Assembly: GCA_965200965.1 (NCBI GenBank)
Contig: OZ241744.1
Coordinates: 3,008,001-3,072,000, forward strand
Reading direction: 5' to 3'
Source: an uncultured Candidatus Binatia bacterium
GTDB taxonomy: Bacteria; Desulfobacterota; Binatia; Bin18
DNA: 64,000 nucleotides
Shown here: positions 41,422 to 59,015 of the stretch, piece by piece
How positions within the stretch are numbered: position 1 is the first letter of the stretch
How the letters are laid out: each line of letters opens with the position of its first letter
Position numbers and translations under genes: made by a program
The notes under the pieces: model-generated
The model's database searches: none
What the model was told of the DNA's origin: nothing
The model's input: only the letters and a program-made list of their open reading frames with translations

Positions 41422-41433
41422 GGGAGAGGTGTC

Positions 41434-42657: not shown

Positions 42658-42668
42658 AGGATACGACT

Positions 42669-43112
42669 ATGGCACTCGACTTTGACCGTTCCATCCTGGG
42701 GACCGTCTTTGATGAAACCTTGTTTGTCCCCATTACCAAAGAAGAGATTCTGGAGTTTGCGGCAGCCCTCGGAGAGACCAACCCGCTCTATACAGATGAA
42801 GCCGCGGCGGCTAACGGCCCGTACCGCGGCTTGGTGGCTCCACCGACATTTGTCACCAAGCTGCGTCCGAACAAAATGACGCCCGAGAATATGCCCAAGT
42901 TCGGCAAGGTCGGCTTTGACGGCGGCAGAGACCTCAATGTGTTTGAGCCGGTGCGGCCCGGCGACACGCTCACGATGGTCAGCAAGATTCACGACATCTA
43001 TGAAAAAACAGGGCGCAGCGGCAGCATGTATTTCATTGTCCTGCGCAACGAGGTCAGTAATCAGCACGGTGAAAAAGTGGCCGTGATCGACCATAGGATC
43101 ATGCAGCGATGA
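42669..43112 (+). CDS. MaoC/FAS1-like hotdog dehydratase subunit
   Basis: 'FAAALGETNPLY...APPTF...PVRPGD'. Confidence 0.85.
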   Translation: MALDFDRSILGTVFDETLFVPITKEEILEFAAALGETNPLYTDEAAAANGPYRGLVAPPTFVTKLRPNKMTPENMPKFGKVGFDGGRDLNVFEPVRPGDTLTMVSKIHDIYEKTGRSGSMYFIVLRNEVSNQHGEKVAVIDHRIMQR

Positions 43113-43531
43113 GCAGTTTCTATTTTGAAGATGTCGAAGAGGGCGACGAGTTCCCACCCCTGGACCTGTTTCTGACCAAGGACCAGGTCCGTCGCTATGC
43201 GTGGACCGCCAATATGGATTTTCCGCGCTTTACCGACGACGAGGGGGCTCGCAAGGAGGGCCTGCCCGGCATGATTGCGCCCGGCGTCATGAGCATGGGC
43301 CTGCTGGCGCGGATGATCAGCGACTGGAACCCCGCCGCGCGGATTACCCGTATCGGAACGACATTCCGCAGCCCGGTCCTGCCCGATACACGTCTCCACC
43401 TGTGCGGTGCAGTCACCCAGAAAGACGAACAGACCCATACGGCCGAATGTGATATCTGGATGGAAAACGACGACGCCGAACGCTGGGTCATTGGTACCGC
43501 AACACTTGCCCTGCCGACAAAATCGGCCTGA
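43109..43531 (+). CDS. MaoC family hotdog dehydratase subunit
   Basis: 'YFEDVEEGDE...GLPGMIAPG...FRSPVLP'. Confidence 0.8.
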   Translation: MSSFYFEDVEEGDEFPPLDLFLTKDQVRRYAWTANMDFPRFTDDEGARKEGLPGMIAPGVMSMGLLARMISDWNPAARITRIGTTFRSPVLPDTRLHLCGAVTQKDEQTHTAECDIWMENDDAERWVIGTATLALPTKSA

Positions 43532-43596: not shown

Positions 43597-44328
43597 ATGC
43601 TCAGTCGAATCGTTCTTCCGTCACTCGTGTTGCTGGTGTGTCTGACCCCGGGGCCGACTCCGGCCCAACTCGGCGACGGTCTTGAAGACTCGCTGGACGC
43701 CAGCGCTCAGGTGTACGAAACCTCCCGGCTCGAAACCTTCAACGAAGCCATGTTTGACGTGAACCTGTGGCTGGATGAGAAAGTCATGCGCCCGGTGGCC
43801 AGAGGCTATGAAAGAGTCCTTCCCGCAGGTGCCCGCCTGGGGGTGCAACGCTTCTTTCTCAACCTGGGCGTCCTGCCCCGGTTCGCCAACAGCCTCTTGC
43901 AGTTCAAATTCAACGGGGCGGCGCGAGAAGTGAGCCGCTTTATGGTCAATACCACGGTCGGCGGACTCGGCTTCTTTGACGTGGCCAAGACCCAGTTCGG
44001 GCTTCAGGAGAGCAACGAAGACTTCGGCCAGACGCTGGGCTCTTACGGCCTGGAAGGCGGGGCCTATCTCGTGCTGCCATTCCTTGGTCCGTCAACCGTC
44101 CGTGACGCTGTGGGCTTTGTGGTGGATGGGGCGATGGACCCTAAACAGTATATCCTGCCTGGCACCCACAATCTTGCGGTCAGCACTGGAACGACCGTCA
44201 CCAACGCCGTCAACGACCGATCGTTGAACCTGGAGTTGTTTGAGCAGGTTGATCGCTTCTCGCTCGACCTCTACAGCGCCGCCCAGGACTTCTACCTGCA
44301 ACGCCGAGAGCAGCAGATCGAGGAATAG
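43597..44328 (+). CDS. MlaA/VacJ family protein
   Basis: 'LETFNEAMFDVN', 'RFMVNTTVGGLGFFDVA', 'EDFGQTLG', 'YLVLPFLGPSTVRD'. Confidence 0.9.
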   Translation: MLSRIVLPSLVLLVCLTPGPTPAQLGDGLEDSLDASAQVYETSRLETFNEAMFDVNLWLDEKVMRPVARGYERVLPAGARLGVQRFFLNLGVLPRFANSLLQFKFNGAAREVSRFMVNTTVGGLGFFDVAKTQFGLQESNEDFGQTLGSYGLEGGAYLVLPFLGPSTVRDAVGFVVDGAMDPKQYILPGTHNLAVSTGTTVTNAVNDRSLNLELFEQVDRFSLDLYSAAQDFYLQRREQQIEE

Positions 44329-44333
44329 CAGCC

Positions 44334-44924
44334 ATGCCATATCGCCGACACGCTCTGTGCTTCGCCTTGGGTCTGGCGCTGGCCTGGGCTGGGCCGGCTC
44401 AGGCCGAGACCCCGACCCACATGACCCGGCAGTTGCTTGAGTCTATTATTGCCTGCACAGAAACGAACGGAGCCCAGCCGAGCGGCTGTGATGTGGAAAA
44501 AATTGAGGACCATCTGGCCCTCGCCCAACTCGCCCGCTGGCTGATGGGCCCCCACTGGCAGGACCTCGGCCAGGACAAGCAGGACGATTTCGTCGCCCTG
44601 CTCGCCCACCTGCTGCGCGATGTCGCCTATCCCCGCGCCGCCGCATTCCTCTCCAGCCACCAGATTGTGTACGGCCACAACCGCGTTGAGGGCAAGGAGG
44701 CCAGTGTGGAAACCTTGCTCGTCAACGCCGAAGAGGGCCAAGTCGCCATCACCTATCGCCTGCACCTCATTGACGACCGCTGGAAGGTCTGGGATGTGCA
44801 TCTTGACGGGGTAAGCATGGCCGGCAACCTGCGCAAACAGGTGCAATCCATCATGGCCCGCACATCCTACGAGGAGTTGGTCAGGCGCATGAAGGACAAA
44901 CTCACCTGGGACGGGCCGGGGTAA
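44334..44924 (+). CDS. hpnM: HpnM/MlaC (Ttg2D) family periplasmic lipid-binding protein
   Basis: 'ITYRL...WKVWDVHLDGVS...QVQSI'; lies between mlaA-like and hpnN. Confidence 0.75.
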   Translation: MPYRRHALCFALGLALAWAGPAQAETPTHMTRQLLESIIACTETNGAQPSGCDVEKIEDHLALAQLARWLMGPHWQDLGQDKQDDFVALLAHLLRDVAYPRAAAFLSSHQIVYGHNRVEGKEASVETLLVNAEEGQVAITYRLHLIDDRWKVWDVHLDGVSMAGNLRKQVQSIMARTSYEELVRRMKDKLTWDGPG

Positions 44925-44931
44925 GCGCCAA

Positions 44932-47769
44932 GTGAAGACCCTGCGCCTGCCGCCGTCCGCCCCTTCCGCCCACCCCTTTCCGCCGGACATGACCTGGGAG
45001 CAGCGTGCCCTGTCCTCCCTGGCCGGCCTGACCACGACCCATCCTGTCTCGGTCCTGGCCGTGTGTCTGGCCCTGGTTGGCGTAGCGCTCGGCTATACCG
45101 CCTTGTGTCTGGAGTTCGTCACCGGCCGCAACGATCTCATCAACAGCGACAAGCCGTATATCAAGCTGGAGAAGCAATACACCGAGGAGTTTGGCAGCGT
45201 TGACCAGTTCTTTGTTGTGGTTGAGCCGCAGGATATCGAGCAGGGCAAAGCCTTTGTGGTCCGGCTCGCCGACCTCCTGGCCCGGGAGACCCGCCATGTC
45301 AAGGAGGTCTTCTATCAGATCGACACCAGCTCGCTCGACGGTAAAAAGCTCCTCTATCTGTCTACTGAGGGCCTGCAACGCCTGCTTGACGACCTCGCCG
45401 GATCCCGGGAACTGATCCACGACCTCACCGCCGCCCCCGGCCTCAACACCCTCTTTGAGGCCCTGAACCACCAGATCGCTCAAGCCACCGTCTCATACTT
45501 GGTCGGCGGTCTGTTGGACCTCGGCCACACAGCCGAGCAGGAAACCGGCGGCGAAACACCAACGCCGCAGATCGGTTTTCTCAACTCCCTGCTGTACGAG
45601 ATGGACCAGACCCTCAGCAACCCGGCCCATCGCTATCAGTCACCCTGGGAAGAGTTCTTTGGCGATACCCAAGCGCTGTCGGATGAGGGCTTCCTGGTGT
45701 CCGGCAACCGCCGCTTTCTCTTCATGCTGCTTGACCCCGCCGAGCCGGAAGAGGCCGGACTGACCGAGTTGCAAGACGCCATCACCACAATTCGGCGCAT
45801 TATTCACGACCTGCGCCCGGACTTCCCCGGACTTGACGCCGGTCTGACCGGCATAGAGGTCCTTGATACCGATGAGATGACCAGCGCCCAGCGTGACGCC
45901 CCGTCCGCAACGCTGGCCACCACCCTCGGCATTGGCCTGCTGTACCTGCTCTTTTTTCAGCGCCTCCGCCACCCCGTGCTCATTCTCTCCTCCCTGCTCG
46001 TCGGCCTGTCCTGGACGATGGGCTTTGTCACCCTCGCGGTCGGCCACCTGACCATTCTCAGCGTCTTTGTCGCTCCCCTGCTGCTGGGTCTGGCCGACGA
46101 TTTCGGCGTCCACTTCATGACCCGCTACGAGGAAGAACGCGGCACCGGCAGCGACCCGATTGCGGCCCTCCAGCAGGTCTCTATTCATACCGGGCCGAGC
46201 ATTATCGCCGGGGCGTGTACAACGGCCCTGGCCTTTGCCGCCATTATGCTGGCCGACTTCCGGGGTATGCAGGAACTCGGCCTGATGTCCAGCGTCGGTA
46301 TGCTGCTGTCCCTGCTGGCCATGTTCAGCTTTTTGCCGGCCCTCGTCGTGGTGGTTGAGCGCATCCGGCCCTGGCAGGCCCGTACCAGCCGCCGGCGTTT
46401 CCTGAGTGCCAGCTTTGCCGCCCTGGGGCGGCTGGTCGAGCACAGACGGCGGCCGGTTCTGGTGGTGGCCGGTCTGCTGACGCTGGGGGCGCTGGCTGCG
46501 CTGCCGACCGTTCGGTTTGACTATGACCTGCTCAATCTTCAAGCCCACGGCACGCCCTCGGTTGAGTGGGAGAGACGCATCATCGCCCATTCCGAACGCG
46601 CGTCCTGGAATGCCCTGGCCACCGCTTCAAGCCCCGAGGCCGCCATGCGGAAAGCCGCGGCCTTTGAAGCCCTGCCGGTCGTCGAAACGGTCGAAAGCGT
46701 GGCCTCGTTCATCCCCGCCGGACAGGACCGGTGCCTGCCGCTGGTGTCCGCCCTCCAACCCCTGCTGGCCGACCTGCCCCCGACCCTCGCTCCCGCTCCG
46801 CCGGTTGTAGTCTCCGCCCTGCAACGCTCTCTTGACCAGATCCGCTTCAAGGTCCGCGAGAGCAACGAGGACTGGGACCCTGAAAACCGGCCCACCGAGA
46901 GCGAGCTGAGCACCGCCCGCGACCGGCTCAAAACCATTGTCGCCCGTTTGCAAAACCTGCACGAGGCCGAAGCCCGGGCCGCGCTCAGCCAGTTTCAGGC
47001 CGATCTGTTTGCCGACTTTGCCGAGGTCTGGAGCCTGCTGCGGAACAACATTCATCCCGCCGGTCCGATTACCATGACCGACATTCCGCCCCAACTCAAA
47101 AAACGCTTCGTAAGCCGTGACGAGGACAGGTTCCTGCTTCAGATCTATCCCAAACACAATATCCGTGAACAGCAGGCGCTCGAAGCCTTTATCCGCCAGC
47201 TGCGCCAAGTAGACCCCAATGTCACCGGCTCGCCGGTCATTGGCTATGAGTCAATTCACGCCATGCAGCAGGGCTATCTCGAAGCCGCGCTATACGCCCT
47301 GCTGGCGATTGTGATCGTCACCTTTGGGACCCTGCGGCGCGTCGCTGATACCCTGCTCGCCCTCCTGCCGCTCGGTCTGGGGATGATCTGGACGGCCGGC
47401 CTGATGTGGCTGTGCAAGCTCCAGTTCAACGTGGCCAACCTTGTTGCCGCCCCACTCATTATTGGCATCGGTATCGAAAACGGCATTCACCTTGTCCACC
47501 GTTTTCGAGAGGACCCGCACACGACACCGGCCAGCCTGGTCGCCGGCAGCACCGGACAAGCCGTCGCCCTGTTTTCGCTGACAACTATGGTCGGCTTTGG
47601 CAGCCTGATGATCGCCAAATACTATGGCGTTTTCAGTATGGGCTTGCTACTCTCGCTGGCAGTCGGTAGCGTCCTGCTTGCCTCCCTCGTCGTGCTTCCG
47701 ATGCTGTTGTCTCGCCCGGCAGGCCACACGGCGCAGCATGACAGCGACCACGTCCAGGCCGCCGGCTGA
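44932..47769 (+). CDS. hpnN: Hopanoid-associated MMPL/RND transporter HpnN
   Basis: 945 aa; 'GLADDFGVHF', 'VTGSPV', 'GIGIENGIHLV', 'TTMVGFGSL'; hopanoid gene context. Confidence 0.8.
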   Translation: MKTLRLPPSAPSAHPFPPDMTWEQRALSSLAGLTTTHPVSVLAVCLALVGVALGYTALCLEFVTGRNDLINSDKPYIKLEKQYTEEFGSVDQFFVVVEPQDIEQGKAFVVRLADLLARETRHVKEVFYQIDTSSLDGKKLLYLSTEGLQRLLDDLAGSRELIHDLTAAPGLNTLFEALNHQIAQATVSYLVGGLLDLGHTAEQETGGETPTPQIGFLNSLLYEMDQTLSNPAHRYQSPWEEFFGDTQALSDEGFLVSGNRRFLFMLLDPAEPEEAGLTELQDAITTIRRIIHDLRPDFPGLDAGLTGIEVLDTDEMTSAQRDAPSATLATTLGIGLLYLLFFQRLRHPVLILSSLLVGLSWTMGFVTLAVGHLTILSVFVAPLLLGLADDFGVHFMTRYEEERGTGSDPIAALQQVSIHTGPSIIAGACTTALAFAAIMLADFRGMQELGLMSSVGMLLSLLAMFSFLPALVVVVERIRPWQARTSRRRFLSASFAALGRLVEHRRRPVLVVAGLLTLGALAALPTVRFDYDLLNLQAHGTPSVEWERRIIAHSERASWNALATASSPEAAMRKAAAFEALPVVETVESVASFIPAGQDRCLPLVSALQPLLADLPPTLAPAPPVVVSALQRSLDQIRFKVRESNEDWDPENRPTESELSTARDRLKTIVARLQNLHEAEARAALSQFQADLFADFAEVWSLLRNNIHPAGPITMTDIPPQLKKRFVSRDEDRFLLQIYPKHNIREQQALEAFIRQLRQVDPNVTGSPVIGYESIHAMQQGYLEAALYALLAIVIVTFGTLRRVADTLLALLPLGLGMIWTAGLMWLCKLQFNVANLVAAPLIIGIGIENGIHLVHRFREDPHTTPASLVAGSTGQAVALFSLTTMVGFGSLMIAKYYGVFSMGLLLSLAVGSVLLASLVVLPMLLSRPAGHTAQHDSDHVQAAG

Positions 47770-47780
47770 GAGCGACCGCC

Positions 47781-48266
47781 ATGATTACCGGAGCCGACTT
47801 TCTCAAAACGCTGCAAGCCGAAGGCTTCGATTTTTTTACCGGAGTGCCCTGTTCGCTGCTCAAGAGCCTGATCGCCTGCCTTGAAGAGGAGGGCAGGTAT
47901 ATCCCGGAGACCCGCGAAGACGCCGCGGTCGGGCTAGCGGCTGGTGCCTATATGGCCGGCAAACAGCCCGTCGTGATGATGCAGAATTCGGCCCTGGGAG
48001 TGTGCCTCAACGCCCTCGCCTCGCTGAGCCTGATCTACGAACTGCCGTGTCTGCTGATCGTTACTTGGCGCGGCTATCAGGGACAAGACGCGCCCGAACA
48101 TCTCATCATGGGTAACATCTCTCCCCGCCTCTTCGAGACCGTGCGCATTCCGTACCGGGTCCTGGGTGCCGAGACCGCCACCCAGGACGCTGGATGGGCC
48201 GCCCAGGCCCTCCACCACAGCAAAAAACCGGTGGCTCTGCTGCTCCCTCCGGGGGTGCTGGCGTGA
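47781..48266 (+). CDS. Phosphonopyruvate/sulfopyruvate decarboxylase alpha subunit (TPP, ComD-like)
   Basis: 'FFTGVPCSLLK', 'REDAAVGLAAG', 'MQNSALG', 'WRG...DAPEH'. Confidence 0.85.
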   Translation: MITGADFLKTLQAEGFDFFTGVPCSLLKSLIACLEEEGRYIPETREDAAVGLAAGAYMAGKQPVVMMQNSALGVCLNALASLSLIYELPCLLIVTWRGYQGQDAPEHLIMGNISPRLFETVRIPYRVLGAETATQDAGWAAQALHHSKKPVALLLPPGVLA

Positions 48267-48826
48267 AACTGGCAGACGCCCTAGGCGTAGTGATTCCCCT
48301 CCTGGGCGACGAGCTAGTCGTACACGCCAACGGTTTTATTGCGCGCCAATCCTTCACTCTCAGCGACCGGCCGGGCAACTTCTACATGATCGGCTCAATG
48401 GGACTCGCCTCATCTATCGGCCTGGGCCTTGCCCTCAACCGTCCCGACCGCCGGGTAGTGGTCTTTGACGGCGACGGCAATGTGCTCATGAATATGGGCT
48501 CTCTGGCGCTCATTGGCGCTACCCAGCCGTCCAACTTTGTCCATATCGTTTTCGACAACGAAGCCTACGGCTCAACCGGCAATCAACGCACCATCTCGGC
48601 TCATGTCGCCCTCGAAGACATCGCCCGCTCCAGCGGCTACCCGCGCGTTGGCAGGGTTGAAACCCCAGCCGCTCTCAAAGCCGCGGCAGGCGCATTACTT
48701 GCTCAGGTCGGCCCCTCGTTTCTGCTGATCAAAATTGAACCCGACTGGCAAGAACGCCGGGTCGGCCGCATCACCCACGAACCGCCCCGGATTGCCCAGC
48801 GGTTCATGGATGCGATGAGAAAATGA
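48263..48826 (+). CDS. Phosphonopyruvate/sulfopyruvate decarboxylase beta subunit (ComE-like)
   Basis: GTGA overlap; 'NFYMIGSMG', TPP motif 'DGDGNVLMN...DNEAYGSTGNQ'. Confidence 0.85.
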   Translation: MKLADALGVVIPLLGDELVVHANGFIARQSFTLSDRPGNFYMIGSMGLASSIGLGLALNRPDRRVVVFDGDGNVLMNMGSLALIGATQPSNFVHIVFDNEAYGSTGNQRTISAHVALEDIARSSGYPRVGRVETPAALKAAAGALLAQVGPSFLLIKIEPDWQERRVGRITHEPPRIAQRFMDAMRK

Positions 48827-48858
48827 CGACGCTGTAACCCCTGCCTGCCGAGTTCCCC

Positions 48859-49932
48859 ATGCAAGCCATCCTCCTCAACCCCGGTCCGGTCAACGTCTCC
48901 CCGCGCGTCCAGCAAGCCTTATTGCGTGGAGACCTGTGCCACCGCGAAGCCGAGTTCTCAGACCTGCTGCGAGCTATCCGCTCAAAGCTCCTGCGGGCCT
49001 TTGCCCCCCAGGACTATACCGCGGTCGTCATCAGCGGCTCAGGCACCTCCGCGGTAGAGGCTATGGTGTCCTCAGCCCTGCCCCCGGGGAAAAAACTCCT
49101 GGTCATCAACAACGGGGTCTACGGCGAGCGTATGCTGCGCATGGCCACCGCCCACCGAATACCGAGTGTTGAGTTGCGCTATGCCTGGACCGAGCCGCCC
49201 GACATCGCTCAGATCGAAGCCAAGCTTCAGGCCGACCCGGCTATCGGCGGCGTCGCCCTCGTCCACCATGAGACCACCACCGGGCTGTTGAACCCGGTCT
49301 CCGAGGTCGGGGCCCTGACCAGGCGGCTGGGGCGTGTGTTCCTGCTTGATGCAGTCAGCGCCTTGGCCGGCGAAGACCTTGCCCTTGCCCGCGACCAGGT
49401 CGATCTATGTGCTTGCACGGCCAACAAATGCGTCCAGGGCTTGCCCGGCGTGGCCTTTGTGTTGGTACGAACGAGCCTGATGGAAGCGATGCAACACCAC
49501 CAACCCAACTCGCTCTCTCTTCACCTGCCCGTCCACTGGGCAGCCCAGGAACGCAACAGCGTCCCCTTTACCCCATCTGTGCAAACCTGGTACGCCCTTG
49601 ACGCCGCCCTTGATGAGCTGCTGGAAGAAACCGTGGCGGCACGCATCGCTCGCTATCGCGCCGCCTCGCAGCTGCTGCGGACCGGCTTCGGTCGGCTGGG
49701 GCTGCGGTTTCTTTTGCCGCCCGAACGGCGGGTCAACTCGCTCACCGCGCTGGTCTTGCCCCACACCCTGAGCTACCACGAACTGCATAACCAGCTTAAA
49801 CACCGCGGCTTTGTCATCTATGAAGGCCAGGGTCAACTCCAGACCGCTATCTTCCGGGTCGCCAACATGGGGCATCTGAGCCTTGATGACTTCCGCCGTT
49901 TCCTCCGCAGCCTTGAAGACGCGCTGCGCTAG
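48859..49932 (+). CDS. 2-aminoethylphosphonate transaminase-like (class V PLP; PhnW/AepZ family)
   Basis: 'LLNPGP', 'SGSGT', 'VHHETTTGLLNP', 'DAVSA', PLP Lys in 'TANKCVQGLPG', 'PFTP'. Confidence 0.8.
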   Translation: MQAILLNPGPVNVSPRVQQALLRGDLCHREAEFSDLLRAIRSKLLRAFAPQDYTAVVISGSGTSAVEAMVSSALPPGKKLLVINNGVYGERMLRMATAHRIPSVELRYAWTEPPDIAQIEAKLQADPAIGGVALVHHETTTGLLNPVSEVGALTRRLGRVFLLDAVSALAGEDLALARDQVDLCACTANKCVQGLPGVAFVLVRTSLMEAMQHHQPNSLSLHLPVHWAAQERNSVPFTPSVQTWYALDAALDELLEETVAARIARYRAASQLLRTGFGRLGLRFLLPPERRVNSLTALVLPHTLSYHELHNQLKHRGFVIYEGQGQLQTAIFRVANMGHLSLDDFRRFLRSLEDALR

Positions 49933-49947
49933 CTCAGCTTCCACACC

Positions 49948-50685
49948 ATGAAAGCCATTATTCTTGCCGCCGGCATAGGCAAACGCTTCCAAGCCGTCAC
50001 CGACCAGCTCCCCAAGTGCCTGATTGAACTCCACGGGCGGACGCTCCTGGAGCGAACCCTGTCCGCCCTTGGTGCGGCTGGGGTCAGCCGGGCGGTGGTC
50101 GTCGTTGGCTATCGGGCCGAGATGGTTGAGCAGAAAATCGGGGCCAGGTGTGGCAAGGTCCAGGTCTCCTACATCACCAATCCCCGCTATGACCAAGGGG
50201 CGATCGTGTCGCTGTGGAGCGCCCGCCAGGAGTTTGACGACGATCTCCTCATCATGGATGCCGATGTCCTGTTCCCGACCGCCCTGCTCAGCCGGCTCAT
50301 CACCTCCCCCCATCCGAACTGCTTTCTGCTCGACGCCGGTACGGCCAATACCGGAGAAGAACAAATGCTGCTGACCCGGGGCGGCCGGGTAGTGACGATC
50401 GTGCGGGGTGGGTCCGGGGAGTATGATCTGATTGGCGAGTCCATAGGCTTCCTCAAAGTTTCGCGTGACGATGCGGCCCTCCTGCACGCCATTCTTGACG
50501 AGCAGATTGCCCAAGGCCGGGACACCATCGAACACGAAGAAGCCTACCCGCTTTTCCTGGCCCAGCGCGTTGTCGGCTTTGAACGGGTCGAAGACCTGCC
50601 GTGGATAGAAATAGACTTTCCCCATGACTTAGAGCAGGCCGAGCGGGAAGTCCTGCCGCGCATTCTTGCCCTCGATCGGGCCTAG
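49948..50685 (+). CDS. Phosphocholine/phosphonate cytidylyltransferase (LicC/PntC-like)
   Basis: 'ILAAGIGKR...PKCL', 'MDADV', 'GESIG', 'WIEIDFPHDL'. Confidence 0.85.
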   Translation: MKAIILAAGIGKRFQAVTDQLPKCLIELHGRTLLERTLSALGAAGVSRAVVVVGYRAEMVEQKIGARCGKVQVSYITNPRYDQGAIVSLWSARQEFDDDLLIMDADVLFPTALLSRLITSPHPNCFLLDAGTANTGEEQMLLTRGGRVVTIVRGGSGEYDLIGESIGFLKVSRDDAALLHAILDEQIAQGRDTIEHEEAYPLFLAQRVVGFERVEDLPWIEIDFPHDLEQAEREVLPRILALDRA

Positions 50686-50691
50686 ACGCCC

Positions 50692-52443
50692 ATGCTCCCC
50701 TCCTTCCTCAGCCCCCTGACCCGCCTGTCGCCGGTAGCGTTGGCTGGCCTGTTTACGCTGCTGGCCGGCCTCGCCTTCCTGTGGAAGCTGGGCGACGGGC
50801 CGATCTACCGGACGATGGAAGGGCGGGAAGCCCTGGTGATGCAGGAGATGCTGCGCAGCGGCAACTGGGTGCTGCCGCTGCGCAATGGCGAGACAATTCC
50901 TTCCAAACCGCCCCTGTTACACTGGCTCGGTGCCGGCGTCGCCCGGCTGAGCGGGGGAATGTCGGAATGGGCAGCCCGCTTTCCGTCTGCCCTGTTCTCT
51001 GCCCTGAGCGTCGGCCTGACCTGTTTGCTCGGCTGTCGGCTGGCCAACCGTGAGGTCGGCATCCTGGCCCCTCTGCTGTTGCTCACCACGCCCCTGTTTG
51101 TCGAAATGGCGCGGGAAGCCTGGGTCGATTCGGCCCTGGCCTTTTTTGTCCTGGCCAGCCTGAGCAGTTTCGCCGGTATGTACGAAGCCGGCGAATGGCG
51201 GGGCTGGCGGAGTCTGGCCTTTGCCCTGTCCCTGGCCGGCGCAAGCCTCAGTAAAGGCCCGATCGGCCTCATTCTGCCCAGCCTGGTGATTACGCTCTAC
51301 CTCACAGCCCAGGGACAACTGTCACGCCTCCGGTACCTGTTGCGCCCGACCAATGTCGTGCTGGCCCTTGGCCTTCCCCTGACCTGGTATATCCTGGCGT
51401 TCAACCAGGAGGGCTGGGCATTTTTTCACAAGCAACTGCTCCAGGAAAACATCGTGCGCTTCACCTCCGGTTCGGGCAAACAGATTCCCTCCTCAGCCTT
51501 TTTTGTCGTGCCGTTTATCGTGGGCGGCCTGCCCTGGAGCCTGCTGTTCGGCTTTGGCCTGTGGCACTTTGCCCGCCAGGCTCCTATCCGCGAGAAGGGG
51601 GTACTGGCCCTGATGTGGTGGCTGGCGACCGTCGCCTTTTTTTCGGTCGCCGCCGGCAAGCGCGAGGTGTATCTCCTGCCCCTGTACCCGGCGGTTGCCC
51701 TGTTTGCCGCGCAGTGGGGCTGGGTACATGTCCCCCGCCAGACACGACCGCTCTCCCCCTGGCTGGCAACAGGTCTTGCCCTGGTCGCTCTCGGCCTCAG
51801 CCTGGCAAGCCTGCTGGCCGCGGCCACTATTGTGCTCGGCTGGCTTACCGTGGACTCGGCCGCGGTAGAGCTGGTGTTTGGCGACGACAAATGGAAAAGC
51901 GCGGCCCGCTTCATCCGCTTTGTGGCTGAGCAACCGGCGTATGCCACGATGTTGCTGGCTCTTGTGAGCAGCTGCGGGCTGGGGGCAGTCTGGACGGCGA
52001 CACAGGGCCGCTGGCAGACCAGCCTGTGGCTAGTGCTGTGTGTCCTGTTGCTGACGACCGCCGGCCTGTCGCCTTTTACCCGGGCCTATGCCAAACAGTT
52101 CAAAGCCCTGACCGGATTTGCCGCCCACATCAGCCAGGCAGTCGGCCCTGACCAGCGCGTGTTCTTCTACACCCCCCGGCCCTATTCTTCAGAGTTTGAT
52201 GAGTTCTCCCAGGTCTATTTTTACCTCAACCGCCCGGTCCCCCTGGCCGCGTGCGCCGAGCAGCCCGACTTTTCCCGCTGCCAGCCGGGCTACTACATCC
52301 TGCGGGAACGGCACTGGCACCCCCGGCAACACACGCCTGGTACCCATCTGGTGGTGGACAGCCGCAACGTCTCAGGGCCGGATGCGCACCTGCGCCTGGT
52401 CCTGGTCCGCCGGGATGAAAGCACCCCTGGCAGCAGCTTATAG
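50692..52443 (+). CDS. ArnT/GT83-like (PMT_2) integral membrane glycosyltransferase
   Basis: 'EGREALVMQEM...W..P..NGE..SKPPL', 'ARFPSA', 'KGP', 'KREVYLLPLYPA'. Confidence 0.85.
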   Translation: MLPSFLSPLTRLSPVALAGLFTLLAGLAFLWKLGDGPIYRTMEGREALVMQEMLRSGNWVLPLRNGETIPSKPPLLHWLGAGVARLSGGMSEWAARFPSALFSALSVGLTCLLGCRLANREVGILAPLLLLTTPLFVEMAREAWVDSALAFFVLASLSSFAGMYEAGEWRGWRSLAFALSLAGASLSKGPIGLILPSLVITLYLTAQGQLSRLRYLLRPTNVVLALGLPLTWYILAFNQEGWAFFHKQLLQENIVRFTSGSGKQIPSSAFFVVPFIVGGLPWSLLFGFGLWHFARQAPIREKGVLALMWWLATVAFFSVAAGKREVYLLPLYPAVALFAAQWGWVHVPRQTRPLSPWLATGLALVALGLSLASLLAAATIVLGWLTVDSAAVELVFGDDKWKSAARFIRFVAEQPAYATMLLALVSSCGLGAVWTATQGRWQTSLWLVLCVLLLTTAGLSPFTRAYAKQFKALTGFAAHISQAVGPDQRVFFYTPRPYSSEFDEFSQVYFYLNRPVPLAACAEQPDFSRCQPGYYILRERHWHPRQHTPGTHLVVDSRNVSGPDAHLRLVLVRRDESTPGSSL

Positions 52444-52516
52444 TTCAAACTACAGTCCCCACCCCACGCCAGGGCTTGGCTTGCATCCTGCCCCAGCTCC
52501 AGATACACAGAGCCAG

Positions 52517-53275
52517 ATGGCTGCCGACGCTCCGTCTCCTCCCCCCCCCCCGCTTGGTGAACGTCCGGCCGGTCTGGTCCAGACCGGCCTCGCCGCCTGG
52601 CTGCGCCGCTACCGACGTCTTGTCCCTATCCCGCTGTGTGTCCTGGTTCTGATATTCCTTCCTCCCCTCTCCCCGCTGGCCAGCCCAGGGCTTGACTTTG
52701 CTAGCGATATCCTTGGCACAGCGGTGTGTCTGCTCGGCCAGTGGCTGCGGGTCTGGGCCTGGGGCAGCAACGCCGTGGTCGGCAAGGCCGGCGTGCGTGA
52801 GCGCGGCCCCTACGCCCTGATGCGCCACCCCCTGTACGCCGGCAACTTTCTCATCGTGCTGGGCCTCGTCCTGGTCTATCATAACCCCTGGGTCTATCCG
52901 CTCTTCCTGCTGCCCTTTGCCTATCTGTACGACGCCATCACCAGGATGGAAGAGCAACGCCTGCACTGGCGTTTTCCCCACGACTACGAAGGCTATCGGC
53001 AAGTCGCCGTACCCCGCTTTCTCCCGGTCCTGTCACATCTGGGCCGGGCGTTTGACACCACGCGCCCGTTTGGCTGGCGGCTGGCTTGGCGCAAAGAGTA
53101 TGAGTCGCTCTGCGGTTGGCTGGCCGGCATTGTCGGCATTCAACTCTACGAGCGGGTTGAGGTGCTTGGCTGGACGGTCGCTTGGCCGGCCAGCCGCCTG
53201 TGGCTCGGCCTGCTGGCGTTGATCACCGTGGCCAATATGGCTCTCAAAGCGCGCAGACGCCTCTCACAGCGGTGA
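52517..53275 (+). CDS. Isoprenylcysteine carboxyl/phospholipid methyltransferase family membrane protein
   Basis: 'GPYALMRHPLYAG...EE..L...F..DY..Y...VPRFLP'; ATG 52517 preferred. Confidence 0.8.
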   Translation: MAADAPSPPPPPLGERPAGLVQTGLAAWLRRYRRLVPIPLCVLVLIFLPPLSPLASPGLDFASDILGTAVCLLGQWLRVWAWGSNAVVGKAGVRERGPYALMRHPLYAGNFLIVLGLVLVYHNPWVYPLFLLPFAYLYDAITRMEEQRLHWRFPHDYEGYRQVAVPRFLPVLSHLGRAFDTTRPFGWRLAWRKEYESLCGWLAGIVGIQLYERVEVLGWTVAWPASRLWLGLLALITVANMALKARRRLSQR

Positions 53276-53279
53276 GCCG

Positions 53280-54155
53280 ATGGCCGCGCTCGGGCGCAAA
53301 CGCCTCATTGTCAACGGCGACGATTTTGGGATGTCCGAGCGGGTCAATGCGGCCATCCTGTACGCCCATCAGCACGGGATTCTGACCAATACCAGCCTGA
53401 TGGTCACTGCCAAGGCGTGGCGCGGGGCGATCGAGCTAGCGCGGGCCACGCCGAGCCTCGGGGTCGGGCTGCACCTGACCCTGGTCCAAGGTCGGTCGGT
53501 CCTGTCACACCCCCATGTCTCACGGCTGACCGACCGCAACAGAAACTTTCTCAATGATCCGACCCGTGCCGGGCTACGCTACTTCTTCTCGCCCCGTGCC
53601 CGCTCTCAGGTCCGGGACGAATGCCGGGCCCAGATCGAGCGCTTTCTGGCCACCGGCTTGCCGCTGGCTCATATTGACGGGCATCTCCATATGCACATGC
53701 ATCCCGTCGTTCTGGACAGCCTGCTGGAGCTGGCCAGGGAATATGGCGTCCGGGCGGTGCGGCTGACCCGGGAATCGCTGGCGCGGAGCTTGGCGCTCGA
53801 TCCGCGCGCCGCACCTCGCAAACGCCGGCAGTCTTTCATCTTTCGCCGTCTTGCCCGGCATGCCGAAAAGAAGCTGGCCGCGGCCGGCCTTGTCTGGCCG
53901 GATGCGCTGTTCGGCCTGCACCAGACCGGAGCGGTAGATGGGCCTTACCTGCTCGGCATCCTGCCCCATCTGCACGCCGGCGTGACCGAACTGTACTGCC
54001 ACCCCGCCTTTCTGCCCTGTGCCGAGGTCCAGGGCTGGAGCCCGGGCTATCGCCGTGACCTTGAGCTGGCCGCCCTGACCAGCCGGGCCGTTCGGCGCAT
54101 GATTGACGACCAGAATATTGAACTGATCGGCTACCGCGATCTGTACCGGGCCTGA
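53280..54155 (+). CDS. hpnK: Hopanoid biosynthesis-associated deacetylase HpnK (YdjC family)
   Basis: 'NGDDFG', 'GLHL', 'HIDGHLHMH', 'ELYCHP'. Confidence 0.85.
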   Translation: MAALGRKRLIVNGDDFGMSERVNAAILYAHQHGILTNTSLMVTAKAWRGAIELARATPSLGVGLHLTLVQGRSVLSHPHVSRLTDRNRNFLNDPTRAGLRYFFSPRARSQVRDECRAQIERFLATGLPLAHIDGHLHMHMHPVVLDSLLELAREYGVRAVRLTRESLARSLALDPRAAPRKRRQSFIFRRLARHAEKKLAAAGLVWPDALFGLHQTGAVDGPYLLGILPHLHAGVTELYCHPAFLPCAEVQGWSPGYRRDLELAALTSRAVRRMIDDQNIELIGYRDLYRA

Positions 54156-54284
54156 CTGGACATGGGCCTACGGCCAGGGCTGGCTGCGGTCACGCGCTCA
54201 TGCCCAACTGGTAAGGGCTAGAGCGATTTCAGGGGATGCTAGCAGGCGTTAGCGTTGTGAGGGTGTGAGCGGGCTGGAGGGCAA

Positions 54285-54302
54285 GCCCCCCTTCGGGGGG
54301 GC
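54285..54302. other. Stable hairpin with cUUCGg tetraloop in the convergent intergenic gap
   Basis: GCCCCCC-TTCG-GGGGGGC; no U-tract. Confidence 0.5.
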
Positions 54303-54399
54303 ATCACAATGAAAGAGTGGGGTAGTGCGGCATCTGATATGGGATCACTCGTAGCGGGTTCAGAGTTGCTAGGCCGTCCGTGTATGCCACGCCATAAGG

Positions 54400-55086
54400 T
54401 CATTCAGTCCCTACTATGGTAAAGTTCTGAAGGCTTTCATCCCATTCCAGAATTGACGTTATTCCTGGGCGCGGGAAGTCGGGAACCCTCACCCTGCGAG
54501 AGTATTCTTCCCCGAAATGAGCGATACGGAATTCGTTTTGGGCATAGATGGGGTGCTGCCTATTGTAGATGTGCTCGCCAGTTACCACGCCAGATTCACC
54601 CAGCACTATAGTAAGAGGCCCGCTACAGTCTAAGCGGTTTTCCCCTATGCAGTACAGGTTCCAGTTCACAAGGACAGAAAAGCCGAGAGAGCTATTCTCG
54701 GGCGGAAACAGACAACGCTCCCCCGGCAGGGCGTCCGCCCGTGTTTCGTGGGTCGCTAGATAGCCCAACGCCGGGCGGGGCTCTTCCGATATGCTGGCGG
54801 CTGGCCTCCAGCCAACATTAGTAGGACACCAGGATGTTTTCCCGTTCTGGTCTTGAATCCAGCAGTTATGAGCATCCCCGCAGGTCCAGCCCCGGATAAC
54901 CCCAATGCCTGCTTGTGTAGAGCCGAGGGCAGGTGTTTCTATGACGGTTTCCCCGCGATGCTCGGCATACCCGATAGGGGCAAGCACCGGCACTAGAATC
55001 GCCAGGGTGAAGGCGAGGGGTAGATCAATTGCAAGATTGATTTTGCGTATGCTGACGAGGCCAGCCCGCCCGTTCTGGGCTGTCAA
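54400..55086 (-). CDS. Exported protein with the same repeated domain as 33091..34273
   Basis: 'IETPALGSTQAGIGVIRGWTC...VNWNL...FGEEY...PDFPRPG...WDESLQNF'; lower GC; start uncertain. Confidence 0.65.
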   Translation of the reverse strand: MTAQNGRAGLVSIRKINLAIDLPLAFTLAILVPVLAPIGYAEHRGETVIETPALGSTQAGIGVIRGWTCGDAHNCWIQDQNGKTSWCPTNVGWRPAASISEEPRPALGYLATHETRADALPGERCLFPPENSSLGFSVLVNWNLYCIGENRLDCSGPLTIVLGESGVVTGEHIYNRQHPIYAQNEFRIAHFGEEYSRRVRVPDFPRPGITSILEWDESLQNFTIVGTE

Positions 55087-55221
55087 GCCGGCGCTAGCAG
55101 TCTCACAGAGCAGCTCGTCAAGCCGTCACTTGAAAACTTGATTATTGCAAACGTACCTTGATAAGAAAAAAAGAAGAAGTAGAACTTTTCTCTCCCTTCT
55201 TGTCAATGATTTTCGGTCGGC

Positions 55222-56391
55222 CTACAAGGTCTCGCTGTGTGAGACATCGGGTACGATGTCTTCCGCGGCCATGAGCGCCATCGTGCCATCCCGACGCACC
55301 CGAAAGGTATGCTCTCGCCAGCGGACGGTGTTCCCGCCCAGGCTCCAGACCCAAATCCCGAAGGCCATGAGGTCGGTGATGAGGACAAGTCCAAACGTTG
55401 CCAGGGGTAGCCTGACCCCCAGAAAATATCGGCCCAGCAGCATAGCCGAGAGACAGCGAACCGCCAGGGTCAGCCCGGACAGGACGGCCAGCGTTGTCCA
55501 GCCCGACATAAGCCCCAGCACGGCCCAGACCGTGCCATACGTCACCAGGGTGCCCACATAGCCGACCGGGCGGCACAGGCGTTGGGTTCGCGCCCAGCGC
55601 ATCTGGTGGGAGACCAGTTCCCGCAGGCTGGCCACGTCGGGATAGGTTTCGACGACATAGGGCAGGATGCGCACCCGGTAGCCGGCCCGGCGGGCAAAGT
55701 TCCCCAGATAATAATCATCGGCCAGATAATCGGCCAGGGCCGCAAAGCCCCCGATAGCCTTAGTACACGAATGTGTCACGGCCACGCTTGCCCCAAAGGC
55801 GTAGCTGGTCCGCTCGACCTGGCTGGCAAGCAGGACGGCAGGCATGAAAGAGGTGTTGATCAGCACCGATTCGAGCAGGGCCGGCAGGGGCTGGCGAGCG
55901 ACGCTGCGGTAGGGACAGGTCACGACTCCGACCCGTGGACCGCTCAGGGGTGGAATGATGCGCCGCAGGTAGTCCGCGGCGACCTGCACATCGCTGTCGC
56001 TGATGACAAAAATGTCGTATTTGGCCCGCTGTGACAGCGCGTGCAGGGTGTTCACCTTCTGATTGCTCCCGACCGTCTCAGGATCGACGACCAGCACAAT
56101 ATCGCACTCTGGGAAGTCGTGCTGGAGGTGTTGGACGACCGTGATGGCGGGATCGAGCGGGTCGCGTACACCAAACAACAGTTGAAAGGCAGGGTAATCA
56201 ATACGGCAGAAACTCGCCAAATGCGCGTACAGGTCGGGCGTTGCCCCCTTGAGAGGCTTCAGGATGGACACCGGCGGGCAGGCTGCTAGGGGGGTGGGAC
56301 GCGGTCGAAATAGTCGCCAGGCGGCATACACGGACAAGAGGTAATACGCCCAGGCAGCACACAGCAAAACGGCGAGGAGGATCGTAAGCAT
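55222..56391 (-). CDS. hpnI: Bacteriohopanetetrol glucosamine glycosyltransferase HpnI (GT2)
   Basis: 'SILKPLKG', 'GSNQKV', 'ISDSD', 'LADDY', 'HQMRWART'. Confidence 0.85.
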   Translation of the reverse strand: MLTILLAVLLCAAWAYYLLSVYAAWRLFRPRPTPLAACPPVSILKPLKGATPDLYAHLASFCRIDYPAFQLLFGVRDPLDPAITVVQHLQHDFPECDIVLVVDPETVGSNQKVNTLHALSQRAKYDIFVISDSDVQVAADYLRRIIPPLSGPRVGVVTCPYRSVARQPLPALLESVLINTSFMPAVLLASQVERTSYAFGASVAVTHSCTKAIGGFAALADYLADDYYLGNFARRAGYRVRILPYVVETYPDVASLRELVSHQMRWARTQRLCRPVGYVGTLVTYGTVWAVLGLMSGWTTLAVLSGLTLAVRCLSAMLLGRYFLGVRLPLATFGLVLITDLMAFGIWVWSLGGNTVRWREHTFRVRRDGTMALMAAEDIVPDVSHSETL

Positions 56392-56407
56392 AAGAGCGGG
56401 CGGACGG

Positions 56408-56434
56408 CCGGAGGGGAAGGCTCAGCCCCTCCGG
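56408..56434. other. 9-bp hairpin between hpnJ and hpnI
   Basis: CCGGAGGGG-aaggctcag-CCCCTCCGG. Confidence 0.45.
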
Positions 56435-56444
56435 GCACGGTGTC

Positions 56445-57890
56445 CTAGGCGGCTGGTGCGGTGCTCTTGCCGGCCATCTGACGCCGGGTGCGCATGGTCC
56501 GAAAAAAATCTTTGCCTTCTTGCCACATCCGTTTGCGTTCCTCGGGGTTGGCGACCATCTTTTTCACGGCTTTGACGATGTAGCGGGGACGCAGATAGTA
56601 GGAGGTGTAAAACCGCTCAACCGTCGAGAAGATCTCCTCGCTCGACAGGTGGGGGTAGTTAATGACGCATTGCTGATAGCCCGTCTCGTCCACCATGTCT
56701 TCCGGTTTGATCAAGCCGTGTGCTACGGCGTGGTCGTAGAAGGCGGTCCCGGGATAGGGTGAGGCCAGGGAGACCTGGATCGTCTCGGGGTTCATTTCCC
56801 GTGCAAAACGCATGGTCTCTTGCATGGTTTCCCGCGTTTCACCAGGCAGGCCGAGGATAAACGTGCCGTGAATCAAAATGCCGAGCTTGTGGCAGTCTGT
56901 GGTAAACCGCCGGGCGGTTTCGAGCGCAACGCCTTTTCTGATGTTTTTCAGAATCTGGGCGTTGCCGGACTCATAGCCAATCACAAACAGGCGCAGGCCG
57001 CCCTCTTTCATGATTCTGAGCGTTTCGTAGTCAACATTGGCCCGCGAGTTTGTGGACCAGCACAGGCCCAGCGGTTTGAGTCGCCGGGCGATCTCGCGTG
57101 CCCGTTTGGGATCCGCGGTGAAGGTGTCGTCATCAAAGAAAATCTCTTTCATGCCTGGAAACAGACGGGGCATGGCCTGGACTTCGGCAATCACGTTGTC
57201 CACCGAGCGGGTCCGGTAGGAGTGGCCGGTCGTGACCTGGGGCCAGAGGCAGAAGGTGCAGCGGGCCGGACAGCCACGGCCGGTGTACAGGGACACATAC
57301 GGGTACTGACAGTAGGGGCTGTTATACTTGCGGAAGTCGAGGTCGCGGGCATAAATGGAGCTTGCAAAGGGCAGGCGGTCCAGTTCGTCACCGGTCATCG
57401 GGGTCCGCTCGGGATTATGCACAATCCGCCCGTTCTTCCGGTAGCTGATGCCTTGGACCTGGGCCCAGTCCAGACCCTCGGCCAGCTCTTTCATTGACCA
57501 GTCGAACTCTTTGCGGGCGGCGATATCAATGGCGGTGGATGCTTGCAGGGTCTGCTCGGGCATGGCCGTTGGATGGCCGCCGACAAAGGCGACCGTCGCC
57601 CCCGGATTGCTGTCCTTAATCATCTGCGCGGTTTGCACGTCCATCTTGAACGAGGGCGTACTGGTATGCAGGACCACGAAGTCATACGCCTTGGCAATAG
57701 CGACGCTCTGGGCCTGACTCAGCCCCTCGGGCGGAGCGTCAAGCACACGGCTGTCTTGAATCATGCCGGCCGGGTAACACAGCCAAGTTGGATACCAGAA
57801 GGACCACACCTCCCGTGTCGCCTGATAGCGAGACCCCGCCCCGCCGTCGAAGTTGTCGTAGGCCGGGGGGTTTAAGAACAAGGTACGCAT
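56445..57890 (-). CDS. hpnJ: Hopanoid biosynthesis radical SAM protein HpnJ
   Basis: 'FDGGAGSRYQATREV.SFWYPTWL', 'RGCPARCTFCLWPQ' CxxxCxxC. Confidence 0.95.
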   Translation of the reverse strand: MRTLFLNPPAYDNFDGGAGSRYQATREVWSFWYPTWLCYPAGMIQDSRVLDAPPEGLSQAQSVAIAKAYDFVVLHTSTPSFKMDVQTAQMIKDSNPGATVAFVGGHPTAMPEQTLQASTAIDIAARKEFDWSMKELAEGLDWAQVQGISYRKNGRIVHNPERTPMTGDELDRLPFASSIYARDLDFRKYNSPYCQYPYVSLYTGRGCPARCTFCLWPQVTTGHSYRTRSVDNVIAEVQAMPRLFPGMKEIFFDDDTFTADPKRAREIARRLKPLGLCWSTNSRANVDYETLRIMKEGGLRLFVIGYESGNAQILKNIRKGVALETARRFTTDCHKLGILIHGTFILGLPGETRETMQETMRFAREMNPETIQVSLASPYPGTAFYDHAVAHGLIKPEDMVDETGYQQCVINYPHLSSEEIFSTVERFYTSYYLRPRYIVKAVKKMVANPEERKRMWQEGKDFFRTMRTRRQMAGKSTAPAA

Positions 57891-57977
57891 TCCCTCCTCC
57901 TTCCCTCATCTGTATCCACGTCACTCTCCTACATACCAAACAGCGGCCCGCCGGCATAGGGGCGACGGCCCGGCCGC

Positions 57978-59015
57978 TCAGGGCAGGGGCTCGGGCAGGG
58001 CCGGGGGATGCTCCCCGGCCCGCCAGGCATAGCCGGCGCGGGTCAGAAAGAGCAGACCAAGCCCGTTATAAACCGCCTCCCGCGCCCGTTTGAGGACCAT
58101 CAGGGCCAGCCCGGCCCCGACATCGATCCCGAGCAGACGACTCAGAAAGACCCCGGTGGTCTCTCTGACGCCGAGTGCACCGGGAATGACCAGGGCCGCG
58201 GCCGTCATGGGTTGCAGCATGGACTCAAGAATCAGTGCCTCGACCGGACTGACGCGGATACCGATCAGGGCAAAGATGACCCAGATTTCGACCGCGCCCA
58301 GCACCCAGCCCAACAGGTGGTAGAGGGTCGCGGCAAGAAAGGTGTGCGGCTTGCTGTCGTACAACTGGAGGAGCTGGGCGTCGATGCGCCGCGCGCCGGC
58401 TTCCCAGCGTTGCGGGGCCGACCAGTGTGGAAACCAGCGTCCCAGACCCCGGACGAGCTTTTCCATCAGACCGCGCCGCTGCCAGTGGATCAGACCCAGG
58501 ACAAAGCCGCAGGAGACGGCCAGCAGCAGACCCATCACCCACCAGCCGTGCAGCCCCCAGCCAAAGCGAAACAGAAAAAACGGCAGGCCGATAAGAATAA
58601 AGATGACCTGAGAGACGGTCAGCGCGGTTTTGGCCGCCACAACCGAGGCCATGCCCACCTCGGGACGAATCCCACGCCGGCGCAGCAGATAAACCTTGAA
58701 GGCTTCGCCGCCGATGGAGGCAGTCGGGGTGAGATTGTTTACCGCCTCTCCGGCAATCCGGCTCAGCGAGAAATACCACAGCGGGATGGGCCGGACAGCG
58801 GCGTCTTGGGGAACCAGCCACGACCAGCCCTTGGCATCACACGCGGCAATGGCGGCGTAGGGCAGGAGGACAAGTGGGGCGAACCAGCCCAGCCGAACCG
58901 TGTGGCTGGCAACATCGGACAGCCCGACCGTCCACACCAGGACGCCGAGCAGCCCCAGACCAAGCGATACGGACAGCAGTTGAATGCCACGGTGTTTTCG
59001 TGCGCTGGTGGTCAT
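57978..59015 (-). CDS. HpnL-like / lysylphosphatidylglycerol-synthase TM (flippase-like) protein
   Basis: 'GEAVNNLTPTASIGGE', 'PGALGVRE', 'KRARE'; upstream of hpnJ. Confidence 0.75.
   Translation of the reverse strand: MTTSARKHRGIQLLSVSLGLGLLGVLVWTVGLSDVASHTVRLGWFAPLVLLPYAAIAACDAKGWSWLVPQDAAVRPIPLWYFSLSRIAGEAVNNLTPTASIGGEAFKVYLLRRRGIRPEVGMASVVAAKTALTVSQVIFILIGLPFFLFRFGWGLHGWWVMGLLLAVSCGFVLGLIHWQRRGLMEKLVRGLGRWFPHWSAPQRWEAGARRIDAQLLQLYDSKPHTFLAATLYHLLGWVLGAVEIWVIFALIGIRVSPVEALILESMLQPMTAAALVIPGALGVRETTGVFLSRLLGIDVGAGLALMVLKRAREAVYNGLGLLFLTRAGYAWRAGEHPPALPEPLP

Follow-up and report, generated by a model that had tools for sequence, protein, structure and literature searches.

The DNA analyzed here, hereafter the window, is a stretch of 64,000 nucleotides from contig OZ241744.1 of an uncultured Candidatus Binatia bacterium, and its positions 43597-59015 hold a cluster of genes for the tailoring and export of hopanoids in which the middle part of a predicted pathway for a 2-aminoethylphosphonate (AEP) head group is embedded. 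That these genes make a phosphonate product is highly probable; that the product is a phosphono-hopanoid is a more tentative proposal, which may prove right but is far from assured. The locus is a variant of the known, chemically unsolved Group 1 phosphonolipid cluster, homologues of which account for 36% of the ppm neighborhoods in PMC8942020 (this and the other papers cited by PMC number are drawn on in part). The host genome consists of one contig (C1; 99.3% complete, 5.7% contamination), to which the coordinates prefixed C1 refer.

In the pathway that we propose, a non-canonical phosphoenolpyruvate (PEP) mutase fusion would turn PEP into phosphonopyruvate, a split thiamine diphosphate (TPP)-dependent decarboxylase would yield phosphonoacetaldehyde, an aminotransferase would form AEP and a PntC-like enzyme would activate the latter as CMP-AEP. 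A displaced CDP-alcohol phosphotransferase (CDP-AP) would then move AEP onto a hydroxyl of bacteriohopanetetrol (BHT) or of its HpnI/K/J glucosamine or cyclitol derivative, after which the product would be flipped by an HpnL-like protein and brought to the outer membrane by HpnN-, HpnM- and MlaA-like proteins. The second to fourth steps, namely decarboxylation, transamination and cytidylylation, are assigned with good confidence from protein family; the mutase activity of the first step is predicted from gene context and conserved residues, whereas the last two steps and the acceptor are proposed from gene context by itself.

All 13 genes of the run were found at the positions and in the order that the earlier note on this DNA had described. 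Ten open reading frames (ORFs) follow each other on the forward strand from 43597 to 54155, with successive gaps of 5, 7, 11, -4, 32, 15, 6, 73 and 4 bases, and the hpnL-like gene, hpnJ and hpnI converge on them from the reverse strand; the negative gap is the GTGA overlap of the decarboxylase α and β ORFs (48263-48266), which that note had also read correctly. Profile scores, given here as bits/NCBIfam cut-off (Pfam matches by E value), exceed the cut-off for the deacetylase HpnK (53280-54155, forward; TIGR03473, 325.1/232.6), the BHT N-acetylglucosaminyltransferase HpnI (55222-56391, reverse; TIGR03472, 374.6/310) and the radical SAM enzyme HpnJ for BHT cyclitol ether (56445-57890, reverse; TIGR03471, 724.5/577.6). 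Best matches that nevertheless stay under the cut-off were obtained for the HpnN-like RND/MMPL hopanoid transporter (44932-47769, forward; TIGR03480, 587.1/751.85), the HpnM/MlaC-like periplasmic shuttle (44334-44924, forward; TIGR03481, 43.7/160.1; Pfam MlaC, E 1.6e-21) and the HpnL-like LPG_synthase_TM membrane protein, which is of the type paired with CDP-APs (57978-59015, reverse, scanned as 58011-59015; TIGR03476, 186.9/195.65; PF03706). The run opens with an MlaA-family lipoprotein, the predicted outer-membrane partner of HpnM (43597-44328, forward; Pfam MlaA, E 1e-64), which is of the 'hpnS' type of PMC12324291.

The genome search suggested in the earlier note recovered all that it had listed, namely a PepM-like fusion, shc, hpnH, an hpnG-like gene and CDP-APs. 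In the profile search shc and hpnH score over cut-off; the hpnG-like gene, adjoining hpnA- and hpnB-like genes, remains under it (124.1/187.1). The gene set for BHT cyclitol ether (hpnI, hpnK, hpnJ, shc, hpnH and hpnG-like) is thus complete in the host genome. Positions 36000-64000 showed neither a PEP mutase nor a CDP-AP, and all whole-genome matches to them lie outside the window, as that note had also stated. Neither of the genomic situations that it regarded as damaging to its own proposal was encountered, be it a lack of pepM together with a decarboxylase grouping with ComDE, or a block unlinked to hpn genes in relatives.

The phosphonate module is closely tied to the hopanoid genes among relatives. 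The order hpnN-decA-decB-aepZ is kept in all 15 loci fetched from the same family and likewise in the single locus from the same order, and hence the arrangement is not due to chance. Across 111 genomes of the class, hpnJ is present in 37 of the 41 that carry the decarboxylase versus 30 of the 70 others, and the two genes lie within 25 kb of each other in 29 of the 37 genomes having both, which supplies the conserved synteny that the earlier note had proposed to look for; the remaining eight have decarboxylase and hpnJ on different contigs, seven of them in fragmented assemblies. A similar association emerges from the wider set of variant-PepM cassettes (50 of 51 loci, one locus of 3 kb being left out), in which shc or hpnH was found in 14/17 genomes with an HpnL-like match versus 4/33 without. 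Canonical cassettes, too, adjoin hopanoid genes, that of Roseomonas marmotae lying beside ispH-hpnH-hpnG-shc and that of Mycetohabitans beside a dxs-hpnN-hpnH-shc cluster, while in another locus (L121) ntp-CDP-AP-hpnL lies downstream of shc-hpnG-hpnA on the same strand.

A soluble donor such as CMP-AEP requires an alcohol acceptor, the choice of which would fall to the CDP-AP. Among eight CDP-AP matches in the host genome, the one at C1:1378311-1379570 matches those of related cassettes, and phylogenetic analysis places it as sister (ultrafast bootstrap [UFBoot] 98) to the hpnJ-adjacent CDP-APs of one same-family and three other-family genomes (G011, G039, G149 and G157); in G011 the gene sits between hpnJ and hpnL. 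In the one same-order genome, hpnK and hpnI have between them a CDP-AP gene that is short and of Group 1 type. The HpnL-like protein of the window groups with copies adjacent or fused to CDP-AP (UFBoot 96), a grouping that taxonomy may confound. Two further families of the class (f11 and f14) give no PepM or Ppd match in any of the 18 genomes searched; in the loci fetched from them a CDP-AP is found within about 4.5 kb of hpnJ in 6/6, with an HpnL-like protein called in 5/6. Both f14 loci carry a different donor module ahead of the CDP-AP/HpnL-like pair (L245:3487-10316 and L246:12713-19648), formed by a HAD hydrolase, an NTP transferase, an unknown protein of 270 residues, a class III aminotransferase and a GFO oxidoreductase, with inositol-1-phosphate synthase nearby in L246; this module could possibly make an aminocyclitol-phosphate head group. 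As the CDP-AP and HpnL-like genes stay with hpnIJK while the donor modules change, a bacteriohopanepolyol (BHP) is the favored acceptor. A bolder generalization, which we put forward with somewhat greater reserve than the phosphono-hopanoid itself, is that CDP-AP and HpnL constitute an unrecognized hopanoid-capping module joining CMP-activated head groups to BHPs, the donor here being AEP from a variant PEP mutase, and thus yielding a phosphono-hopanoid, with sister lineages plugging in another donor. The parts of PMC12324291 and PMC12583986 considered here leave HpnL without a function.

Several results weigh against a phosphono-hopanoid. Neither shc nor hpnH scores over cut-off in 32 of the 50 cassette genomes, including the closed genomes of Sorangium and Minicystis, and the variant-PepM cassette as a whole is therefore independent of hopanoids. 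In genome G079 (completeness not given), one run (L155) contains the whole cassette together with CDP-AP and HpnL-like genes, and a squalene-hopene cyclase domain was searched for there without success; the surroundings of the B. cenocepacia and Cupriavidus cassettes are free of hpn genes up to 12 kb; and in a genome of three contigs (G038) the cassette is on one contig and hpnJ on another. The f11/f14 CDP-APs form a clade of their own, in a tree with low deep supports, and may not be orthologous to the host CDP-AP, and four further hpnJ loci (one of f9, two of f12 and one of f19) have no CDP-AP nearby. Kin are not independent, and consequently the counts given above overstate the linkage; moreover, shared regulation may by itself explain why genes for membrane lipids lie together. 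At the level of the enzymes, the mutase fails both the diagnostic motif EDK-x5-NS and the TIGR02320 cut-off (282.3/319.55), and the decarboxylase tree leaves Ppd/AepY and two ComDE unseparated, with deep support of at most 51. CDP-APs with soluble CDP donors, of the Kennedy type, normally use diacylglycerol, as stated in the literature consulted in part. Finally, a literature search, with most subscription journals and supplements outside its scope, found no phosphono-hopanoid and no mutase with a comparable loop, in agreement with the earlier note, which knew of no characterized phosphono-hopanoid.

What we consider the strongest alternative, unlikely though it seems, is that CMP-AEP is made and the CDP-AP loads it onto diacylglycerol or another non-hopanoid lipid to give a phosphono-analogue of phosphatidylethanolamine. 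The hpn and AEP genes would then be clustered since they shape the same membrane and may share export by HpnN, HpnM and MlaA. This possibility accommodates the 32 cassette genomes without shc or hpnH, one of which has both CDP-AP and HpnL-like genes, as well as the published classification of the homologous core of seven genes among predicted phosphonolipid pathways (PMC8942020, PMC5987646) and the use of diacylglycerol by Kennedy-type enzymes. However, the CDP-APs of most hopanoid-free cassettes (Sorangium, Minicystis and Planctomycetota) fall in separate clades, hpnJ has a CDP-AP/HpnL pair beside it also at loci with another donor module or with none, and no phosphonolipid has been characterized from homologous clusters despite their abundance, as far as the consulted parts of PMC8942020 report. 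Among acceptors we rank BHP as a tentative first choice, diacylglycerol or another lipid as a clearly weaker candidate and a lipopolysaccharide (LPS) or other glycan as improbable. The earlier note had left the choice between an AEP-decorated composite BHP and a phosphonolipid; the former has gained comparative support, and what speaks on the other side is the occurrence of the same cassette in many genomes without shc or hpnH and the missing mutase motif.

(Cassette composition varies elsewhere: four Sorangium and Minicystis loci from cultured strains [L104, L118, L129 and L168] have no transaminase at the locus and no shc or hpnH, and the Blastocatellia/Chloracidobacterium cassettes L115 and L144 are likewise without transaminase. 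In L115 an aldehyde dehydrogenase gene precedes pepM, which suggests a phosphonoacetate head group.)

Two genes directly following that of the cytidylyltransferase could point to a glycan instead: an ArnT/PMT-like GT-C glycosyltransferase (50692-52443, forward; Pfam PMT_2) and a PEMT/ICMT/LmtA-like membrane methyltransferase (52517-53275, forward; Pfam PEMT, E 3.6e-8; TIGR04571, 56.4/325). Through them, or through a phosphonolipid serving as donor, activated AEP might end up on lipid A, LPS or a surface glycan, a destination compatible with the LpxD-like gene of the host genome (judged by eye) and with the nature of HpnK, which we take to belong to the YdjC family that includes deacetylases of the lipid A pathway. 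We find this improbable, given that GT-C enzymes take lipid-phosphate-sugar donors, not CMP donors, and that in genus g8, as in most other families, ntp and hpnK have neither gene between them. With an occurrence in 6/15 same-family loci, the two genes are accessory to the cluster, and therefore the N-methylated or further glycosylated product that the earlier note had entertained is at most a tentative possibility.

The first enzyme of the proposed AEP pathway deserves closer consideration. The PepM-like fusion, of 570 residues, is encoded at C1:2011988-2013700, 1.04 Mb from the locus, and combines PF13714 with PF12804, a degenerate nucleotidyltransferase domain. In place of EDK-x5-NS its loop reads EDNIFPKRCS, and the pattern EDN-x-FPKRCSFY is invariant in 28/28 orthologue loci. 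The best solved relatives of the fusion are PEP mutases and phosphonopyruvate hydrolase (PPH). Residues of PepM/PPH type are retained at W55, D69, D96, D98, E125, K131, R170 and H201, positions to which we presumably can ascribe the catalytic roles of the tryptophan, three aspartates, glutamate, lysine, arginine and histidine of those enzymes; two lyase-like paralogues have Y and D/E where the fusion has W and H. A FastTree phylogeny of 167 domains rooted on these two paralogues places the variant at a basal position inside the PepM/PPH branch (support 0.996), and the loops in this set comprise 88 of the type K..NS, 37 of the type N..CS and 16 of the type N..NS.

EDK-x5-NS serves as the filter separating Ppm from its kin in the isocitrate lyase family (PMC8942020, PMC6697681), and 22 fused sequences without it were discarded in PMC6697681. 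Since the variant has EDN-x-FPKRCS instead, surveys filtered by motif discard it. A pattern scan produced at least 120 genome matches in Binatia, Nitrospirales, Myxococcota, Planctomycetota, Acidobacteriota and Actinomycetota; among the 80 of these loci listed with their flanks, a split decarboxylase follows the PepM-like gene in 51, across many phyla, and a nucleotidyltransferase is found in 36, a transaminase in 33 and a CDP-AP in 24. Within the class, the fusion is present at 55% identity or more in 38 of the 41 genomes carrying the decarboxylase. Outside the host's own family, 21 of the 24 genomes with both genes have the fusion within 5 kb of the decarboxylase (the other three have them on separate contigs), whereas the two adjoin in 0/14 genomes of the family, from which we infer that the mutase gene moved out of the cluster in this lineage. 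(Of note, genome G025 retains, beside a barrel gene inside its hpn cluster, an 85-codon fragment of the fusion C-terminus [L060:5904-6158], the likely scar of a pepM relocation, and has a full copy on another contig.)

It could be argued that an enzyme with this loop is no working mutase and that the cassette serves a different anionic head group or phosphonates acquired by scavenging. In favor of this view, the place of the Asn in EDK-x5-NS is taken by Cys, the residue that methylisocitrate lyases also have there, and the branching of the clade is basal. Yet the W and H positions are of PepM/PPH and not of lyase type, 16 of the 167 sequences have intermediate EDN..NS loops, and the variant heads Ppd-AEPT-PntC operons (AEPT, AEP transaminase) in many phyla, with no PhnX over cut-off in the host genome, so that we hold a non-functional mutase to be improbable. 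Our literature search for PepM loop mutants found none. Catabolic use of AEP was rejected on similar grounds, given the absence of PhnX over cut-off and the combination of Ppd and PntC, which indicates synthesis.

Directly after pepM lies a gene for a 320-residue (α/α)6-barrel protein (C1:2013790-2014749; L014:11791-12750), a single domain with squalene-cyclase-type repeats that also occurs inside Nitrospirales cassettes. It is present in only 19 of the 111 class genomes, each time within 3 kb of the variant pepM, and is thus considered accessory. Its alignment-based model (pLDDT 95.6, compared with 36.9 for a single-sequence fold) ties between cellobiose 2-epimerase (Z 27.1; root-mean-square deviation 2.9 over 300 aligned residues) and drimenyl diphosphate synthase (Z 27.0; 2.7 over 267). 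Divergent from pepM, ORFs resembling BpsA_C (branched-chain polyamine synthase), GNAT, FkbH and acyl-carrier proteins occupy C1:2008958-2011657 (L014) and adjoin an rRNA operon.

The aminotransferase of AepZ/AEPT type (48859-49932, forward) scores just below the PhnW-AepZ cut-off (TIGR03301, 352.1/360.8), and all five of its top solved relatives are AEP transaminases. Its signatures DLCHRE, PFTP and IY.GQG are common to the Group 1 AEPTs of Burkholderia and Mycetohabitans. The change of RFTP to PFTP was considered as a mark of another substrate, an idea that was dropped because AEPTs of Burkholderia, Mycetohabitans and Cupriavidus encoded beside canonical PepM also have PFTP. The next protein, a PntC-like cytidylyltransferase and predicted CMP-AEP maker (49948-50685, forward), has Treponema PntC (Tde-PntC, 6PD1) as its best solved relative over its full length (E 5.9e-14), and its GIGKR..PK agrees with the motif GxG(T/S)R-x-PK. 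R13, K23 and R152 align with R15, K25 and K153 of Tde-PntC, residues with functional roles according to PMC6697681, R152 being a conservative change. In comparison with the Pnt pathway, in which PntC forms CMP-AEP (PMC6697681; PDB 6PD1/6PD2), the nucleotidyltransferase motif and the equivalents of R15 and K25 are kept; the differences are that K153 is Arg here and that PntC is not fused to AEPT.

The predicted phosphonopyruvate decarboxylase is split into an α subunit (47781-48266, forward) and a TPP-binding β subunit (48263-48826, forward), both of which nearly tie between the Ppd and ComD/E models. The former scores 132.2 bits with TIGR03297 versus 128.1 with TIGR03845, the latter 173.2 with TIGR03297 versus 178.8 with TIGR03846; neither ComD/E cut-off is reached (128.1/147.95 and 178.8/221.5), and that of TIGR03297, 312.5, applies to the fused protein. 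In a tree of concatenated subunits (34 taxa), the enzyme of the window clusters with decarboxylases linked to the variant PepM (UFBoot 78), so that the comparison with Ppd and ComDE suggested in the earlier note gave the enzyme a clade of its own and settled its grouping with neither. The α subunit carries the Ppd-type motif WRG..D.P.H, here as WRG..DAPEH (WRGYQGQDAPEH), which is present in 54 of 68 α-subunit homologues; of the 14 missing it, one has a variant differing in one residue, and most of the others are short subunits from actinobacteria or acidobacteria. Six annotated AepY have DEPQH, and both annotated ComD compared are without WRG..D.P.H. This comparison, which was made in the present analysis, is not a published criterion and includes only two ComD proteins, favors a predicted Ppd over ComDE. 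In the genome, no ComA was found and no cysteate synthase over cut-off (best 66.1/324.9), which makes a sulfonate route unlikely. A ComDE-type sulfopyruvate decarboxylase acting with the transaminase to provide taurine for a sulfonolipid can thus be set aside as very improbable, for the split architecture, the slightly higher β score with TIGR03846 and a tree compatible with ComDE are outweighed by the negative searches for the two sulfonate enzymes, by the motif that neither ComD has, and by the PepM-like, PntC and CDP-AP genes, whose presence in the genome and inside relatives' clusters fits a phosphorus donor and upholds the preference for AEP expressed in the earlier note.

The closest known system is the seven-gene core of Group 1, also named 'Burkholderiales_CDP-OH', the product of which is not characterized in the consulted parts of PMC8942020. 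The Ppm-PntC fusion, Ppd, AEPT, standalone PntC, CDP-AP and LPG_synthase_TM/HpnL-like protein of this core (PMC8942020) are all in the host genome. Contrary to that core, the host PepM has EDN-x-FPKRCS, its Ppd is split in two, the genes are distributed over three sites, one of which, an hpnN/M/K/I/J/L cluster, holds the middle steps, and an extra (α/α)6-barrel gene follows pepM; for the 2-oxoglutarate-Fe(II) oxygenase of the core, tblastn with a Mycetohabitans query gave no host match at E 1e-15. The same core is drawn with 'hpnL' in a lichen Nostoc (PMC5987646). Relative to known clusters for hopanoid tailoring and transport, the present locus shares HpnI/K/J over cut-off, HpnN-, HpnM-, MlaA- and HpnL-like proteins and, at other places in the genome, shc, hpnH and an hpnG-like gene, but it differs in having a phosphonate module between hpnN and hpnK and an HpnL that travels with CDP-APs. 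The nearest precedent for a link with terpenes is the 'phosphonate-terpene' cluster of Nitrosococcus, gene cluster family GCF 731 of PMC8942020, to which PMC7285500 devotes one sentence based on antiSMASH and for which a phosphonoterpene has been speculated. There, too, AEP genes lie beside squalene synthase/cyclase genes; however, its PepM is motif-positive and no acceptor model accompanies it, whereas here the link is with hpnIJK/N and is kept across the class.

Should the proposal hold, a C-P-capped hopanoid would represent a new class of lipids and a candidate biomarker tying the phosphorus cycle to hopanoid geochemistry, HpnL would gain a role and the product of the commonest unsolved bacterial phosphonate cluster would have a name. 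If the enzyme with the EDN..KRCS loop is active, surveys based on EDK-x5-NS miss phosphonate producers in the six groups in which the pattern scan found its matches.

Other features of the locus have a less evident relation to the pathway. The genes hpnK and hpnI are separated by an insert of 1.07 kb with lower GC (54156-55221; 0.557 vs 0.632), which contains a 228-codon ORF on the reverse strand (54400-55086) that matches no Pfam or NCBIfam family. This ORF has 31 further tblastn matches at 25-32% identity within the genome, no such gene was called between the two genes in same-genus loci where hpnK and hpnI are neighbors, and it is probably unrelated to the pathway. A promoter and terminator scan of the locus gave nothing usable. 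The genome has another pair of mlaA- and hpnM-like genes, with 55% and 25% identity, at C1:337977-339313. Upstream of mlaA, on the same strand, positions 39455-43531 comprise a hydrolase, a thiolase-like gene, an OB-fold gene, a PHP gene and two MaoC-like genes (named by eye), which presumably resemble genes for the degradation of steroid side chains; most loci of the family have them ahead of the cluster as well, and they may share its operon.

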